3,759 nt of DNA from Dictyostelium discoideum (taxonomy: Eukaryota): NCBI GenBank assembly GCA_000004695.1, contig CH709159.1, forward strand, positions 1 to 3,759, in the 5' to 3' direction. This document shows positions 1 through 3,759 of this stretch, piece by piece. How positions within the stretch are numbered: position 1 is the first letter of the stretch; the number at the start of each line of letters is the position of its first letter. Position numbers and translations under genes: made by a program. The notes below the pieces were generated by a model. The model saw only the letters and a program-made list of their open reading frames with translations, did no database searches and was not told the DNA's origin.

Positions 1-225
1 TACAGTTTTTACACAATGTTGGTGAAATTGTTTTGGTTTTAATGCTAATGCTTAAACATCATATTTGAATTTTTAACAATTAAAGCATCACCACTATTTA
101 CATATAGTACTTTGGCTGCTTTTTCGAGGAATTTAGTCAAATTTTCCTCTGCATCTAACTATTATTCATTGCCAGATTCAATGGCTAAATTTCTTAAGAG
201 TTTTATCAAATCTATTAATTCTTCG

Positions 226-388
226 ATCATTCTTTTTTTTTTGAAATTTTTTTTTTTATTTTGTTTTTTCAATTTTTTTTTTTATTTTTTTTTGTTTTTT
301 TTTTAACAAATGTAATTTTTTTTTATTTTTTTCAATTTTTTTTTTTTTTAATTTTTATTTAATTTTTTTTGTTTTTTTTTAATTTTTT
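226..388. repeat. Oligo(dT)/oligo(dA) low-complexity block (runs of 9-14 T separated by 1-4 nt)
   Basis: Directly visible homopolymer T runs. Typical AT-rich intergenic or 3'-flank DNA. The six-frame 'ORF' 112..306 is just a poly-Phe translation of this block. Confidence 0.85.
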
Positions 389-414
389 GTGTTGATTTGT
401 GTTGATTTGTGCTT
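389..414. repeat. 10-bp tandem repeat (GTGTTGATTT) x about 2.5
   Basis: gtgttgatttgtgttgatttgtgc seen directly. Confidence 0.8.
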
Positions 415-444
415 TTTTTGTGTTTTTTGATTTCGCCACTTGTT

Positions 445-450
445 TTTATT
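445..450 (-). terminator. AATAAA polyadenylation signal for the minus-strand gene ending at 499
   Basis: Minus-strand AATAAA (plus-strand tttatt) lies about 50 nt downstream of the TAG stop at 499-501. The A-rich tract follows on the minus strand. Confidence 0.4.
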
Positions 451-498
451 TTCTAATTTCCCCATAACCCCTTCTATTAATTGCAACCAAATCAAGTT

Positions 499-1023
499 CT
501 AATTTTTTGTGTCCTTGTTAACTTTGTTTTTGCAACTTTTTTTTGAAGGTATCACATTAACGATTGTTCCTATTGATGGTGATTTGGAAGGTGATTTGGA
601 AGGTGATTTGGATGGTGATTTGAGAGGTGATTTGGATTGTGATTTGAGAGGTGATTTGGATGGTTTGGAATGTGATTTTAAAGGAGGTTTATTAACAATT
701 GGTATCTTATGATGACGGCCTCTGAGACGTTTTACAGTTTTTAAAAATGGGAGTATTTCTTCTTGTTCCATTTCATTATTGAGTTTGTGTTGAAATTGAT
801 TATCGTTAATGATAGGTGGAATATTTGATGGATTGTTAAGGGCATCTTCCAATACCCTAAATGGATCATTTTGTGTTACCAATTGATGCAAGTTGAAATT
901 GGATAAATCCTTACCAAGATTTTTAATAAATTGAACCAGAAATTCAATAACTTTCCCATCATTATTTAAATAAAGGCCAGAAGTAAAAGAATCAATATCT
1001 TTTGGTATGTTTGGCCAAAAATA
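499..1023 (-). CDS. Hypothetical low-complexity protein, C-terminal part, with a KSPSKSP/SPLK tandem-repeat tail. Open frame of 174 codons plus a TAG stop at 499-501. The 5' limit is set by an in-frame TGA, not a start codon.
   Basis: The six-frame track gives 499..891; its first codon is TTG, so this is not a real start. The same frame stays open upstream to 1023 with strongly A/T-ending codon usage (cca, gat, tct, tta, gtt, caa). It translates as ...FWPNIPKDIDSFTSGLYLNNDGKVIEFLVQFIKNLGKDLSNFNLHQLVTQNDPFRVLEDALNN...KSPSKSPSKSPS...KDTKN*. No ATG lies in frame before residue 'NNEMEQEE', so the true start must be upstream via a frame change (see next feature). Confidence 0.55.
   Translation of the reverse strand, partial: YFWPNIPKDIDSFTSGLYLNNDGKVIEFLVQFIKNLGKDLSNFNLHQLVTQNDPFRVLEDALNNPSNIPPIINDNQFQHKLNNEMEQEEILPFLKTVKRLRGRHHKIPIVNKPPLKSHSKPSKSPLKSQSKSPLKSPSKSPSKSPSKSPSIGTIVNVIPSKKSCKNKVNKDTKN
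578..682 (-). repeat. 12-bp coding tandem repeat (GGTGATTTGGAA-like, about 8.5 units) encoding (K-S-P-S/L)n on the minus strand
   Basis: Units seen directly: ggtgatttggaa x2, ggtgatttggat, ggtgatttgaga, ggtgatttggat, tgtgatttgaga, ggtgatttggat, plus degenerate units. The plus-strand 'ORF' 509..712 (GDLEGDLEG...) is the antisense artefact of this repeat. Confidence 0.9.
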
Positions 1024-1185
1024 TCAACTGTTGATTGTTTATAAAGAACCAACTTACCTCCTACAACCAGAGTATAAACCTTTTTTTTGAAGGCTATTGA
1101 TTCCATCTTCCAAAAATTCAAGTTTATAAAGTTGTTTAGTGTCTTCCTGTATTACCTTATGAATTTTACACAAAATAAATATTTT
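1024..1185 (-). CDS. Probable upstream coding continuation of the same gene. The well-coded frame switches at homopolymer runs. Frame a reads ...QEDTKQLYKLEFLEDGINSLQKK. After the T8 run at 1081-1088, frame b reads (MESIAFKKK)VYTLVVGGKLVLYKQSTVDIFGQTYQK. After the T4 run at 1000-1003, it joins the 499..1023 frame.
   Basis: Codon-usage quality moves from frame a to frame b to the downstream frame exactly at A-runs on the minus strand. Frame b has an ATG at 1106..1104 (MESIAFKKKVYTLVVGG...) and is open to a TAA at 966-968. A GTAAGT donor-like hexamer (minus strand, 1057..1052) sits where frame a hits its stop. The only downstream AG gives a 30-nt intron that enters the 3' frame at a TGA, so splicing does not explain the switch. 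The gene structure is unresolved. Confidence 0.3.
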
Positions 1186-1260
1186 CTATTAGAATTAAAT
1201 ATAAAATTTGTTAATTATTACTGTTTCTTATATTATTATTAATCTTTATGTTTTAATTAC
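1186..1260 (-). other. Candidate intron or inter-ORF spacer (about 90% A+T). On the minus strand it begins GTAATT just after a TAA and ends AATAG.
   Basis: Composition and GT...AG ends are seen directly. However, all three frames of the upstream ORF hit stops before the GTAATT, so its use as an intron is unproven. Confidence 0.2.
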
Positions 1261-1478
1261 TTATATTATTTTTTTAATTTCTAGAAAAAGTACAGTATCA
1301 CCAACTTTAAATCCCTTTGGTGGTTTTGAATTCCATTGATTTTGGTAACTTGTGAGATTTTCAAGAATAGCTGTTCTTTCTTTTTTGAAACATCTGAAAC
1401 ACCAATTGATTGAGAGTTTTGTTCTGATTGAACATTAATAAACAAAGGTACAATACCAACAGCTTGAGATGATGCCAT
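1261..1478 (-). CDS. Small ORF or first exon. It reads MASSQAVGIVPLFINVQSEQNSQSIGVSDVSKK. After the T6 run at 1381-1386 the better-coded frame shifts to ERTAILENLTSYQNQWNSKPPKGFKVGDTVLFLEIKKII*. Alternative start ATG at 1517. The track frame ends at 1281.
   Basis: Track ORF 1281..1517 (-). The AAAATGG context at 1478 is better than that at 1517. Codon usage (ggt, gtt, tca, gat) is excellent up to the A6 run, then better in the -1 frame, which ends at TAA 1261-1263. It lies about 60-100 bp downstream of the outward-facing TATAAATA of the left repeat arm. Confidence 0.4.
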
Positions 1479-1567
1479 TTTAATTGTTCTTGTTTTCGTA
1501 TTATTGTAATCATACAAAGCTTGTTTTAATCCCAGTGAGACAATCCGGCCATATTAGTCACATTCAC

Positions 1568-1575
1568 TATTTATA
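1568..1575 (-). promoter_or_regulatory. TATAAATA box at the outer end of the left arm, facing outward on the minus strand toward the ATGs at 1517 and 1478
   Basis: Plus-strand tatttata is TATAAATA on the minus strand. It lies 175 bp from the HSE. Its partner is at 3048-3055. Confidence 0.35.
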
Positions 1576-1620
1576 CATTTTTATTTTCTTAAAAATTTCC
1601 CAAAACTAAAAAAATAAGTG

Positions 1621-1746
1621 TTTTCGACCCTTCACAATTTTCGTGCATTGTGTGGGTTCGGAATTTTTATGTTTTTTGACCTTGCGCATTTATCGCGTCA
1701 TTGTGCCGGTTCGAAATTTTTACTTTTCTTTCGAAAATTTTTTATT
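1621..1746. repeat. Degenerate tandem sub-repeats of about 52 bp inside the left arm (two units plus a partial third), each ending in GGTTCG(A/G)AATTTTTA or TTCGAAAATTTTTTA
   Basis: Unit 1 (1621-1669) and unit 2 (1672-1723) align: ttttYgaccYtt...cattgtgNNggttcgRaattttta. A third copy of the 3' half is at 1731-1745. Mirrored in the right arm at about 2877-3000. Confidence 0.7.
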
Positions 1747-1747
1747 C

Positions 1748-1768
1748 TTCGAATGTTCTAGAACATTC
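1748..1768. promoter_or_regulatory. Heat-shock element in the left arm: TTCGAAtgTTCtaGAAcaTTC
   Basis: Four contiguous perfect nGAAn/nTTCn pentamers with 2-nt spacers, plus an abutting TTC. CTAGAACATTCTAA matches the Pelham consensus CTnGAAnnTTCnAG at 13 of 14 positions. Confidence 0.65.
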
Positions 1769-1823
1769 TAAAAAAAATTATCTTAGATATTTGGGAAATT
1801 CAAATAAATAAATGTTATTAATA

Positions 1824-1843
1824 ATATATATATATATATATAT
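1824..1843. repeat. (AT)10 microsatellite, with a further (AT)5 at 1853-1862
   Basis: Seen directly. It could act as a TATA-like element for inward transcription from the HSE. Confidence 0.9.
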
Positions 1844-2624
1844 GATAATATTATATATATATGATAATATAAATTGCCCCGTTTCAATCGTCCAATGCAA
1901 AAATGTATGTACACCATAACTCACTTCCATCTCACCGTTTACATCACAATTTTCGCCCTGGAAATAGTTTGTAAGACAGAAGAAGGCTCAACATTTCTGG
2001 ATGTCTATCGCGTTGACTAATAACCAGCTCCCAACCACTATTTCCTTTAGCACCTTTCATATCTACATCAACATTATACTTAATCAATAACTTTACTAGG
2101 CCTGTGTTATGATTCTCAATAGCCCAGCACTTCGGTTTAAATGGGAAGTAAGTATAGGTATGACAAATGAAAAAAATACGTGCTCATGCGAATATATAGG
2201 ATGGGTAGGTCGGCATCTATGACTCGATAGAATTTTTACATTACATGATAATAAGGCATCAATAATGACTGGTTGAGTTGTATATTTGGAAATAGATACG
2301 TTCTAATATAACATTAAACGATTCATTTATTTCATTTATTTCGGTCGTTTTTAAATTATATAAATTACAATAGCACAAAATACATCTCCAAAAAGAGTGT
2401 ACACCGAAAACTTCACACATTCCAGTTAAAACTATATTGTATGCGTAATCATTCACCATAAATTGTTTAGAAGGTATTTATTCACCATCTACATCTAAAA
2501 ATCCACATTTTATACCAATCATTTAATTTATCAAAAATTGACTTTCATCTTTTCCTAAAATTCTTGATAAGTTTCCTTCCCGTGTAATACAAAAATTGGT
2601 TTGTTCACAGCAAAGAAAAATGCA

Positions 2625-2768
2625 CCTTTAAAGCAAATTTAAAGCAAAGTTGATTTAAATTGGATTTAAATTGAATTTAAAGCCGCGTTTAAAAAATTCA
2701 TTTTTAAGGTAATTTTTAAGGTAATTTTTAAGATATTTAAAAATGCCTTTAAAATTTGCTTTAAAATA
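2625..2768. repeat. Cluster of short TTTAAA-cored micro-tandem repeats: (TTTAAAGCAAA)x2, (GATTTAAATTG)x2-3, (TTTTTAAGGTAA)x2.5, (CTTTAAAAT)x2
   Basis: Seen directly, immediately inside the right arm. Confidence 0.75.
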
Positions 2769-2781
2769 AATTTATATTATC

Positions 2782-2800
2782 ATATATATATATATATATA
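2782..2800. repeat. (AT)9.5 microsatellite
   Basis: Seen directly. Confidence 0.9.
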
Positions 2801-2854
2801 TTATGAATAACATTTATTTATTTGAATTTCCCAAATATTTAAGATAATTTTTTA

Positions 2855-2875
2855 GAATGTTCTAGAATATTCGAA
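2855..2875. promoter_or_regulatory. Heat-shock element in the right arm: GAAtgTTCtaGAAtaTTCGAA
   Basis: Mirror image of the left-arm HSE. Four perfect alternating pentamers. Confidence 0.65.
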
Positions 2876-3047
2876 GAATAAAAAATTTTCGAAAGAAAAG
2901 TAAAAATTTCGAACCGGCACAATGACGCGATCATTGCGCAAGGTCGAAAAACTGAAAAATTCCGAACCGACACTATGCACAAAGTTGTGAAGGGTCGAAA
3001 ACTCTTATTTTTTTGAGTTTTGCGAAATTTTTAAGAAAATAAAAACG

Positions 3048-3055
3048 TATAAATA
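3048..3055 (+). promoter_or_regulatory. TATAAATA box at the outer end of the right arm, facing outward toward the ATG at 3223
   Basis: Seen directly. It lies 175 bp downstream of the HSE and about 170 bp upstream of the ATG. A second TATA-like run (TATATATAT, 3107-3115) and an oligo-dT-rich stretch lie closer to the gene. Confidence 0.35.
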
Positions 3056-3122
3056 GTGGCACTAAAAACTAAAACAATTTGATTTATTTTATTTGGGAAT
3101 TCCTCCTATATATATTTAAGAT

Positions 3123-3134
3123 ACACACACACAC
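3123..3134. repeat. (AC)6 microsatellite in the 5' flank of the right gene
   Basis: Seen directly. Confidence 0.9.
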
Positions 3135-3222
3135 AAATTTTATACAAATAATTATTTCTCTTTATTAATTTTTAATATTATTATTTTTCTCATATTATAA
3201 TTTTAGATATCAACAATAAAAT

Positions 3223-3759
3223 ATGTCTACCACTGTTAATAATAATGATGCCTCTAGTAGTAGTACCTCTGCCTCTAATAGCGCTGAATCCTTTGATTTA
3301 AGAATGAAATCAATGGAGGATCAAATCAACAACCTTTCCTTAGCCTTTACAAGATTCATGAAAGAACCTATGTTCTCATCTAATACCAATTCACGTAGCC
3401 AACCTTCTCATGATAACTCTGACACCGAGAATGAACAAAGTGAAGATGAATCAAGTAACAATGTCGATGTTCCAACCGATTATCAATTATCCGATACTTT
3501 ACTTGGTCAGTACAAACATATGGTAAACAATCAAGGTTTACTCGTCGAAGAAGAATGTATCCTCAAGAAAGATGAGATATCCGAATTGAATAAAGTATTC
3601 AACTTTCCATCTAACTTCCAAGTGAACGTCGCTCCATTCGGTACACCTGAAGGTATTACTGTATCATCCAACGTCAAGAACAATGATACTGACTTGTTGA
3701 TTGTCGAAAAGCGAATCAATGATAGCTTAAAACCTTTGCTTCTCATGTCAAGTATGTTA
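3223..3759 (+). CDS. Hypothetical protein, 5' portion. 179 codons open to the window edge with no stop. N-terminus is MSTTVNNNDASSSSTSASNSAESFDLRMKSMEDQINNLSLAFTRFMKEPMF.... It has a Ser/Thr/Asn-rich N-terminus and an acidic stretch, then ...LLGQYKHMVNNQGLLVEEECILKKDEISELNKVFNFPSNFQVNVAPFGTPEGITVSSNVKNNDTDLLIVEKRINDSLKPLLLMSSML...
   Basis: ATG lies in an AATAAAATATG context. I re-translated every codon from 3223 to 3759 with no stop. It is absent from the ORF track only because it has no stop inside the window. There is frequent use of C-ending codons (acc, tcc, aac, atc, ttc, gtc, gac). I could not assign a family. Confidence 0.7.
   Translation, partial: MSTTVNNNDASSSSTSASNSAESFDLRMKSMEDQINNLSLAFTRFMKEPMFSSNTNSRSQPSHDNSDTENEQSEDESSNNVDVPTDYQLSDTLLGQYKHMVNNQGLLVEEECILKKDEISELNKVFNFPSNFQVNVAPFGTPEGITVSSNVKNNDTDLLIVEKRINDSLKPLLLMSSML

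Follow-up and report, generated by a model that had tools for sequence, protein, structure and literature searches.

Two head-to-head DIRS-1 terminal repeats very probably account for an apparent 1.5-kb element in Dictyostelium

What kind of object do two long inverted repeat arms form in a 3,759-nucleotide stretch of Dictyostelium discoideum DNA (the window)? DIRS-1 (Tdd-1), the element that the arms call to mind, is a tyrosine-recombinase retrotransposon of Dictyostelium discoideum, reportedly described by Cappello et al. in 1985. Its canonical form is 4,814 bp long (PMC7192593, citing GenBank M11339), and the initial annotation took positions 1554–3065 for a truncated element of this type. 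We compared the window with nine Dictyostelium loci (L001–L009, 145 kb in total). The comparison indicates that the 1.5-kb 'element' is very probably an accidental composite, in which two independent DIRS-1 long terminal repeats (LTRs) lie head to head, 897 bp apart.

The long inverted repeat itself is present. Its arms, given earlier as 322 and 297 bp with about 93% identity, span 1565–1875 (311 nt, left) and 2769–3058 (290 nt, right) and agree at 275 of 289 aligned positions (95%, or 88% with gaps included). The largest gap between them results from a 19-nt tandem duplication close to the outer terminus of the left LTR, at 1828–1871. Similarity ends sharply on both outer sides, as had been noted, at 1565 and 3058 rather than near 1554 and 3065; the abrupt right-hand end is not that of the LTR, which reaches ~3103; the apparent stop near 3058 reflects the truncation of the left copy. 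Base composition departs from the earlier description. The inner segment, put at 35–40% GC, has 30.5% (32.5% for 1874–2605), with 200-nt windows reaching 36–37% only at 1900–2300, and the surroundings are not 80–85% A+T overall, the window averaging 28% GC and the flanking coding stretches 29–37%. No target-site duplication is visible around the 1554–3065 unit, in agreement with the first reading, and scans of the window for tRNAs and Rfam families returned neither.

By sequence comparison, both arms are DIRS-1 terminal repeats. They are 89–97% identical to the LTRs flanking GAG-RT-YR in full-length D. discoideum DIRS-1 copies (L001 9548–14305, L003 5177–9861), the right arm showing 91–97% identity to DIRS-1 LTR copies and the left arm 84–92% to most LTR copies in L001–L003, L008 and L009. 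Each arm contains two perfect matches to the heat-shock-element (HSE) consensus TTCnnGAAnnTTC, and the TATA box TATAAATA is found in both; with at most one mismatch, the consensus occurs eight times in the window, a count reached in none of 200 shuffles. The proposed likeness to DIRS-1 ITRs in size and HSE content was thus borne out. The outer terminus of both arms reads TTTATATTATCATATAT...ATTATGAA or its complement, matching L' (TTCATAAT...GATAATATAAA) of the ICR, an 88-bp segment next to the right LTR that we read in L001 (13866–13953) and L003 (9441–9490). The arms share with DIRS-1 the ~330-bp inverted LTR, the HSEs, the TATA box and the 33-nt ICR-complementary left terminus. [quoted passage not shown]

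The arms are also multi-copy, with 17–25 matches in the 145 kb of the nine loci, which bears on whether they might be a locus-specific palindromic promoter, firing in both directions upon heat shock to serve two cellular genes. Such a promoter would explain why each arm combines an HSE array with an outward TATA box, directed toward ORFs that start with ATG at 1478 (minus strand) and 3223 (plus strand). As a locus-specific structure it is refuted by the multi-copy nature of the arms, which are DIRS-1 LTRs; neither the arms nor the flanking genes proved to be single-copy. Furthermore, the right ORF is DIRS-1 GAG, and the left ORF is a frameshifted Tdd-4-type transposase fragment whose homology begins upstream of the ATG at 1478, right at the LTR/Tdd-4 junction. 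We give this explanation next to no credence.

The right-hand LTR is part of a DIRS-1 copy in canonical order. A complete left LTR of 333 bp, delimited by collinearity and LTR alignment, occupies 2771–3103 on the plus strand, with the terminus TTTATATTATC at 2771, an HSE array at 2855–2872, TATAAATA at 3049–3056 and the inner boundary GGGAATTCC at 3095–3103; the right arm matches other LTRs as far as 3087–3103, and over its first ~33 nt it is complementary to the ICR half L' in L001 and L003. A blast extension over 2748–2768 was rejected as LTR sequence, its resemblance to the right-LTR extension being due to chance in AT-rich DNA. Downstream on the same strand lies the 5' untranslated leader (3104–3222), collinear with the left-LTR-proximal sequence of the L001 and L003 copies and different in alignment from their right-LTR inner flank. 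It is followed by the first 179 codons of ORF1 (GAG), from the ATG at 3223 to 3759, where the ORF exits the window. As a whole, 2770–3759 (990 bp) is collinear with LTR, leader and ORF1 at 94.8–97.3% identity (L001 9548–10537, L003 18704–19707), and from 2771 onward the left LTR–leader–ORF1/GAG order is the canonical one, at 95–97% identity to full-length copies. The ORF1 product has 163 Dictyostelium protein matches, with up to 96–100% identity and many per contig. Some homologous gene models are fused with RVT_1 or Phage_integrase, and in L001 and L003 ORF1 lies directly upstream of the RT and tyrosine-recombinase genes. [quoted passage not shown] In this right-hand copy, the HSEs and TATA box would drive sense transcription into the element, as in every DIRS-1.

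Whether the span between the outer arm ends is one element can be judged from its geometry. In full-length DIRS-1 (L003 5177–9861, L001 9548–14305), the terminus TTTATATTATC is followed by the HSE, TATAAATA, GGAATTCC and ORF1. In the window the arrangement is reversed: the termini at 1873 and 2771 face inward, and the TATA boxes at 1567–1574 (minus strand) and 3049–3056 (plus strand) face outward. Given this orientation, the 897 bp between the termini belong to neither copy. Compared with DIRS-1, the flagged region thus comprises the 5' end of one copy and an LTR stump of another, with non-DIRS DNA between them. A retroelement of DIRS-1 type that is discrete, has its own ITRs and is either internally deleted or non-autonomous would accommodate arms that are genuine DIRS-1 LTRs of ~300 bp with HSEs, as well as the missing target-site duplication, which tyrosine-recombinase elements predict, but not termini that face the middle with promoters facing outward, nor a right arm that runs unbroken into the DIRS-1 leader and ORF1. 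Likewise, its left arm would lack the inner 45 bp, and its middle would be devoid of DIRS-1 ORF sequence and of the ICR, with most of it having no other copy in the 145 kb. The ICR is experimentally essential for DIRS-1 retrotransposition (PMC7192593). The whole 1554–3065 unit has no second copy in the 145 kb of the nine Dictyostelium loci. With its geometry inside out, its right arm continuing into ORF1 and its middle lacking a DIRS-1 interior, the truncated element first proposed is exceedingly improbable.

The DNA between the outer LTR termini at 1873 and 2771 was searched for remaining internal parts of DIRS-1. Neither GAG, RT-RNaseH-MT nor YR sequence was matched in 1860–2790 by blastn or tblastx against loci with several full DIRS-1 copies, and the ICR is absent from 1874–2747, the sole window matches to it being the LTR termini. 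The 5' end of ORF1 and the ICR, named earlier as parts that might persist here, were accordingly found by neither method. Most of the middle is a low-copy sequence, termed Y (1874–2605, no strand assigned). One part of Y (2358–2605) has a single match in the 145 kb, at 97.6% identity (L003 4930–5176), adjoining another DIRS-1 left LTR; the other (1874–2357) has no match in the nine loci, and no protein homologue of the middle was found among 5.8 billion proteins. In Y, one minus-strand frame shows a modest deficit of stop codons and an ankyrin-like stretch that stays below threshold; for Y as such, tblastx matched L003 only. A decayed ankyrin-repeat gene was considered for the middle and rejected, given a Pfam Ank_2 hit below the cut-off (E 0.002), no protein homologue and only that modest stop deficit. 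The remainder, termed X (2606–2770, plus strand), comes from a short inverted-repeat (MITE-like) element, of which it is the terminal ~165 bp; the terminus of the DIRS-1 left LTR cuts it off. It is 98.8% identical to L005 2727–2897, its terminus CACAGCAAAGAAAAATGCACC is common to six copies whose upstream flanks differ, and a ~550-bp copy of the X family with inverted ends is present at L003 4082–4632. An X–LTR junction that L002 seemed to share was discarded, since alignment typed the L002 terminus as that of a right LTR, so the junctions differ.

The left arm is a DIRS-1 LTR stump at 1565–1873 on the minus strand with its promoter directed leftward, identified by LTR alignment, terminus typing and HSE content. 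Its landmarks are TATAAATA at 1567–1574, an HSE array at 1751–1768 and the left-LTR-type terminus GATAATATAAA at 1873; the inner ~45 bp are missing, and LTR homology ends at 1565 in every match. Of 17 typed ends, 14 have the terminus type that agrees with their LTR side, and the other 3 are swaps. On this concordance the arm is probably the left LTR of a second DIRS-1 copy in opposite orientation. It might instead be a right LTR, left over from a DIRS-1 circle junction or tandem array in which it once abutted the left LTR before X and Y split the two. The succession of one LTR running inner to outer, one running outer to inner and then ORF1 fits such a tandem junction, which the ICR also mirrors. 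However, the terminus of the left arm is of the left-LTR type (GATAATATAAA), without the 55-nt right-LTR extension (TTTAATATAAAATATAATTTAAT...TTTTTAA), and to its left lies Tdd-4 sequence rather than DIRS-1 interior. A right-LTR-type terminus or ICR-proximal sequence was looked for beside the left arm and is absent there, with the proviso that terminus swaps do occur (3/17). Moreover, the DIRS-1 terminus that borders Y in L003 is not the one seen here and meets Y at another position, implying that Y behaves as target DNA. A junction relic is accordingly very unlikely, and two separate insertions are the preferred reading.

Beyond the stump, a 31-bp filler (1534–1564, no strand assigned) separates the start of LTR homology at 1565 from the end of Tdd-4 homology at 1533; it has no match in the nine loci. 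The remainder of the left flank (1–1533, minus strand) is the 3' ~60% of a Tdd-4-type (Ginger2/Tdd) DNA transposon, decayed to a pseudogene. Tdd-4 is a DNA transposon, reportedly described by Wells in 1999. Blastn identity is 87–95% to positions 7159–8961 of L004–L007, within an element of 3,831 bp (5677–9507 in L004) that has ~245-bp terminal inverted repeats (TIRs), TG..CA ends and 5-bp target-site duplications (CATAT, ATGAC) and is 99.6% identical across the four contigs. The coding relic of the transposase C-terminus, delimited by blastp and blastn, extends over ~499–1533 with an intron near 1170–1290, and 1–498 is the T-rich 3' non-coding part. In blastp, the conceptual translation aligns with residues 290–697 of P0274 (715 aa, Integrase_H2C2+rve) at 67% identity (E 1e-166). 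Full-length relatives of the transposase carry Integrase_H2C2 and rve, and the catalytic part is absent from the window. Published TDD-4 measures 3,839 bp, with a 260-bp TIR and a 5-bp target-site duplication (PMC2836005; Bao, Kapitonov & Jurka 2010). The assignment as Tdd-4-type was made through relatives and these published properties of Tdd-4, whose reference sequence is AAFI02000006.1 352615–356458. The 3,831-bp relative shares with Tdd-4/Ginger2-Tdd elements the TIRs, TG..CA ends, 5-bp target-site duplications, an H2C2 and DDE integrase-like protein and C-terminal SPXX repeats.

This relic is decayed. In contrast to an intact element, the window holds only the 3' 60%, with frameshifts; deletions of 1, 5 and 7 nt and one of 135 nt distinguish it from the intact copy, and the LTR stump takes the place of its 5' part. 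The 12-nt tandem repeats encoding SKSP/SPXX of the transposase C-terminus (566–676, minus strand) form a shorter array than in the intact copy, with 36- and 72-nt deletions relative to L004. A first protein search with three matches had suggested a low-copy cellular gene for the left ORF; this was rejected, as P0123 led to a multi-copy integrase-like family and the DNA matches the 3.8-kb TIR element. The flanks are thus DIRS-1 ORF1 on the right and a truncated Tdd-4-type transposase relic on the left, so that the locus neither lies between two cellular genes nor stands apart from a DIRS cluster, as had initially been assumed.

This setting has a parallel in a related locus. Locus L003 contains the same LTR–Tdd-4 junction, has LTR variants in common with the window and lies among DIRS-1 and Skipper-like genes. 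On the 6.4-Mb chromosome record that carries it, L003 spans 696–21,935, which places it less than 22 kb from the end of a D. discoideum chromosome. We are highly confident that the window is a transposon mosaic of D. discoideum, or of a very close relative, of the kind found in centromeric DIRS-1 clusters, the centromeric comparison being drawn from the content of the window and from the related locus L003. Such clusters in D. discoideum consist of fragmented DIRS-1, DNA-transposon and other repeats together with non-unique non-transposon sequence (Glockner & Heidel 2009, PMC2665215). The window shows a similar mosaic, and L003 lies at a chromosome tip.

The identity and orientation of the pieces, the collinearity of the right-hand DIRS-1 copy, the truncations and the multi-copy status are direct observations, and from them we infer an order of events in which nested insertion preceded deletion or recombination. 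The enclosed DNA would be what separated the two insertions, namely the tip of an X element and the low-copy Y. A rearrangement would have removed everything inward of the TATA box from the left copy, joining its LTR through the 31-bp filler to the middle of the Tdd-4-type transposon. Outward transcription from the left LTR into the Tdd-4 relic may still occur.

The underlying biology is already known. A functional role can be envisaged for the head-to-head LTR pair as a hairpin locus, where read-through RNA over 1565–3058 would form a double-stranded stem of ~300 bp that Dicer could cut into LTR small RNAs, although we regard this as a long shot. DIRS-1 LTR-derived small RNAs are strand-symmetric and independent of RrpC, an RNA-dependent RNA polymerase (PMC3950715). 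For comparison, an earlier proposal derives small RNAs from a Skipper hairpin (PMC5633606), to which the LTR-pair hairpin would be analogous. Weaker still is the possibility that, upon heat, the left LTR stump might drive production of a truncated protein from the Tdd-4 C-terminus. The analysis is mainly of value as a correction: the appropriate annotation is a DIRS-1 LTR with GAG, an LTR stump of DIRS-1, the Tdd-4 relic and further repeat debris, whereas a new short DIRS derivative or a promoter between cellular genes is unwarranted. Similarly, gene models including ACTFIT_009771 and DDB_G0282919, listed as 'hypothetical protein', represent fragments of Tdd-4 transposases that have decayed. 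DIRS-1 insertion near other DIRS-1 copies is expected to yield inverted LTR pairs as by-products, and such pairs would matter only if they are true hairpin sources of silencing RNAs.

Global alignment of window positions 1565-1875 with the reverse complement of 2769-3058 confirmed the long inverted repeat, with 275 of 289 aligned positions identical (95%), a value that falls to 88% once gaps are counted. The largest gap between the arms is a 19-nt tandem duplication (ATATATATATGATAATATT) at 1828-1871. It sits within the left LTR copy, directly next to the outer terminus, and was found neither in the right arm nor in the other LTRs examined. The heat-shock-element (HSE) consensus TTCnnGAAnnTTC is matched perfectly twice in each arm, the two matches overlapping, and the HSE count of the window was reached in none of 200 shuffles. 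The arms enclose DNA of 30.5% GC in a window of 28% GC overall, indicating that the composition first estimated (about 35-40% GC enclosed, 80-85% A+T elsewhere) was only roughly right. Neither tRNA genes nor Rfam families were found in the window.

The ORF starting at 3223 has 163 homologues, every one in Dictyostelium and up to 96-100% identical, many of them on one contig and some in gene models fused with reverse-transcriptase (RT) or tyrosine-recombinase (YR) domains. In DNA fetched around these related proteins (loci L001, L002, L003, L008 and L009), window 2770-3759 runs collinear, at 94.8-97.3% identity, with the left ends of full-length copies of DIRS-1, which have the order LTR, leader, ORF1, RT, YR, internal complementary region (ICR) and right LTR (L001 9548-14305; L003 5177-9861). 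LTR copies matching both arms gave 17-25 hits in 145 kb of sampled Dictyostelium DNA. This collinearity, together with the many LTR matches, identifies both arms as DIRS-1 LTRs, in agreement with the literature and bearing out the initial guess that they are DIRS-1 terminal repeats.

LTR limits were defined by aligning the arms with the left and right LTRs of full-length DIRS-1 copies. The LTR starts with the outer terminus TTTATATTAT(C/A)ATATAT..., followed by the HSE array, TATAAATAGTGGCAC and the inner boundary GGAATTCC, past which a left LTR is followed by the leader and ORF1 and a right LTR by GACTAAGGGCGGGTGGG and the ICR. As read in L001 and L003, the ICR complements the left terminus with its first 33 nt and the right-LTR end (...TTTAATATAAAATATAATTTAAT(T/A)AATTAAATTTTTAA) with its last 55 nt, the same make-up as published for the ICR, which is experimentally essential for DIRS-1 retrotransposition (PMC7192593). 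In the right arm, on the plus strand, a left LTR is present in full (terminus 2771, TATA box 3049-3056, inner boundary 3095-3103) and forms the usual 5' end, with promoter, of a DIRS-1 copy; the left arm has this sequence in the opposite orientation (terminus 1873, TATA box 1567-1574, minus strand). The outer termini thus face one another and the promoters point apart, the reverse of the geometry of DIRS-1 elements, whether intact or with internal deletions, implying that neither DIRS-1 copy includes the 897 bp between the arms. A search of these 897 bp for DIRS-1 interior sequence and an ICR found neither, and the 1.5-kb unit as a whole contains no ICR, RT or YR, and therefore no feature needed for DIRS-1 retrotransposition. 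The truncated DIRS-type element proposed for 1554-3065 does not exist as an entity.

Among 25 LTR outer ends surveyed, 17 of which could be typed, the terminus type found on both arms was associated with the boundary on the ORF1 side in 9 of 10 typed cases, suggesting that the left arm is probably a left LTR too and the arrangement two 5' ends head to head. Outer-end types were swapped in 3 of the 17 typed ends, a left-type terminus being present on one right LTR and the 55-nt right-type extension on two left-type LTRs, and in L001 the DIRS-1 3' end is duplicated in tandem with a period of 847 bp (swap and duplication sites: L001 13025-13480 and 13872-14305; L002 ~345-735; L008 ~14580-14880). 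These rearrangements suggest recombination or template switching between LTRs.

In every comparison the left arm is LTR-like only as far as 1565, immediately internal to the TATA box, and the right arm matches other LTRs as far as 3087-3103. The left-arm DIRS-1 copy lacks ~45 bp of the LTR and the entire interior, leaving an orphaned stump, which is linked via 31 bp (1534-1564, no match in the sampled loci) to the sequence on its left.

The left ORF had only three relatives in the initial protein search. One of these, P0123, is integrase-core-like in its N-terminal half, and its homology to the window starts at the junction itself, upstream of the ATG at 1478. Searching exhaustively with P0123 revealed a multi-copy family of D. 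discoideum proteins of 650-800 aa with Integrase_H2C2 and rve domains and without reverse transcriptase; the conceptual translation of the window aligns end to end with residues 290-697 of P0274, a family member of 715 aa (E 1e-166). At the DNA level, window 1-1530 shares 87-95% identity with part of a 3,831-bp element, itself 99.6% identical on four contigs, with ~245-bp terminal inverted repeats (TIRs), TG..CA ends and 5-bp target duplications, properties matching those of the published TDD-4 (3,839 bp, 260-bp TIRs, 5-bp target-site duplication, Gypsy-integrase-like transposase; PMC2836005). Relative to the intact element, the window copy carries frameshifting deletions of 1, 5 and 7 nt and a 135-nt deletion, and is therefore a pseudogene. 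Wells (1999) reportedly described C-terminal SPXX repeats in Tdd-4, in agreement with the SKSP repeats at 566-676; intact Tdd-4-type copies have an array of these 12-nt repeats that is longer by 108 nt (36 + 72), and L003 has a shorter one than the window; the array length is unstable. The 3' non-coding part of the Tdd-4-type element contains a very T-rich tract (~10% GC, window 230-430), its position conserved with small indels in loci L004-L007. The 'hypothetical protein' models ACTFIT_009771 (P0121) and DDB_G0282919 (P0122) are decayed C-terminal Tdd-4-type transposase fragments (window 499-1533, minus strand; L003 10001-11240). Contrary to the initial assumption, neither flanking gene is cellular, the right ORF being DIRS-1 ORF1 and the left a Tdd-4-type relic.

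The same relic occurs at 93-96% identity in L003, a locus at a chromosome tip (696-21,935 in a D. discoideum chromosome record of 6.4 Mb), where it is preceded by an 85-bp LTR piece with the left arm's private variants (shared junction L003 9860-9944, window 1537-1739). L003 differs from the window by a 122-bp deletion that removed the TATA box, and a full DIRS-1 adjoins the remaining LTR piece. The shared junction and variants imply that the LTR-Tdd-4 junction predates the split of the two loci; L003 represents either a segmental duplicate or another strain's version of this locus. It is surrounded by genes of DIRS-1 and of Ty3/gypsy type (Skipper-like, with RT plus integrase), the fragmented DIRS, DNA-transposon and Skipper mosaic that has been described from Dictyostelium centromeres (PMC2665215).

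Between the arms, segment X (2606-2770) is 98.8% identical to L005 2727-2897, and its terminus CACAGCAAAGAAAAATGCACC is common to six copies with unrelated upstream flanks. By these alignments, X represents the end portion of a short element, AT-rich and with inverted ends, that looks like a non-autonomous TIR element, present as a ~550-bp copy at L003 4082-4632 and also at L005 1062-1199 and L004 11034-11194; the DIRS-1 left terminus interrupts it in the window. Segment Y (1874-2605) has a second copy of 2358-2605 only, at L003 4930-5176 (97.6%), where the terminus of a different, full-length DIRS-1 adjoins it at a different position, indicating that Y behaves as target DNA. The rest of Y had no DNA relative in the 145 kb of loci and no relative among the proteins searched. 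One minus-strand frame of Y has 9 stops in 242 codons, versus 14-23 in the other frames, and includes an ankyrin-like stretch, KLLIKYNVDVDMKGAKGNSGW, with sub-threshold Pfam hits.

Two DIRS-1 insertions probably took place near each other in opposite orientation, which agrees with the known preference of DIRS-1 for DIRS-rich DNA; a later deletion or recombination probably joined one LTR to the Tdd-4 fragment. An in-frame ATG of the relic lies ~90 bp downstream of the HSEs and TATA box retained by the stump, which could therefore drive a chimeric transcript, probably a non-functional one. A transcript across both arms would form a ~300-bp stem; such a read-through hairpin as a source of small RNAs is possible but unsupported, and very improbable. 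The repeat is real and its arms are DIRS-1 LTRs, in an arrangement that is ordinary for D. discoideum repeat clusters.
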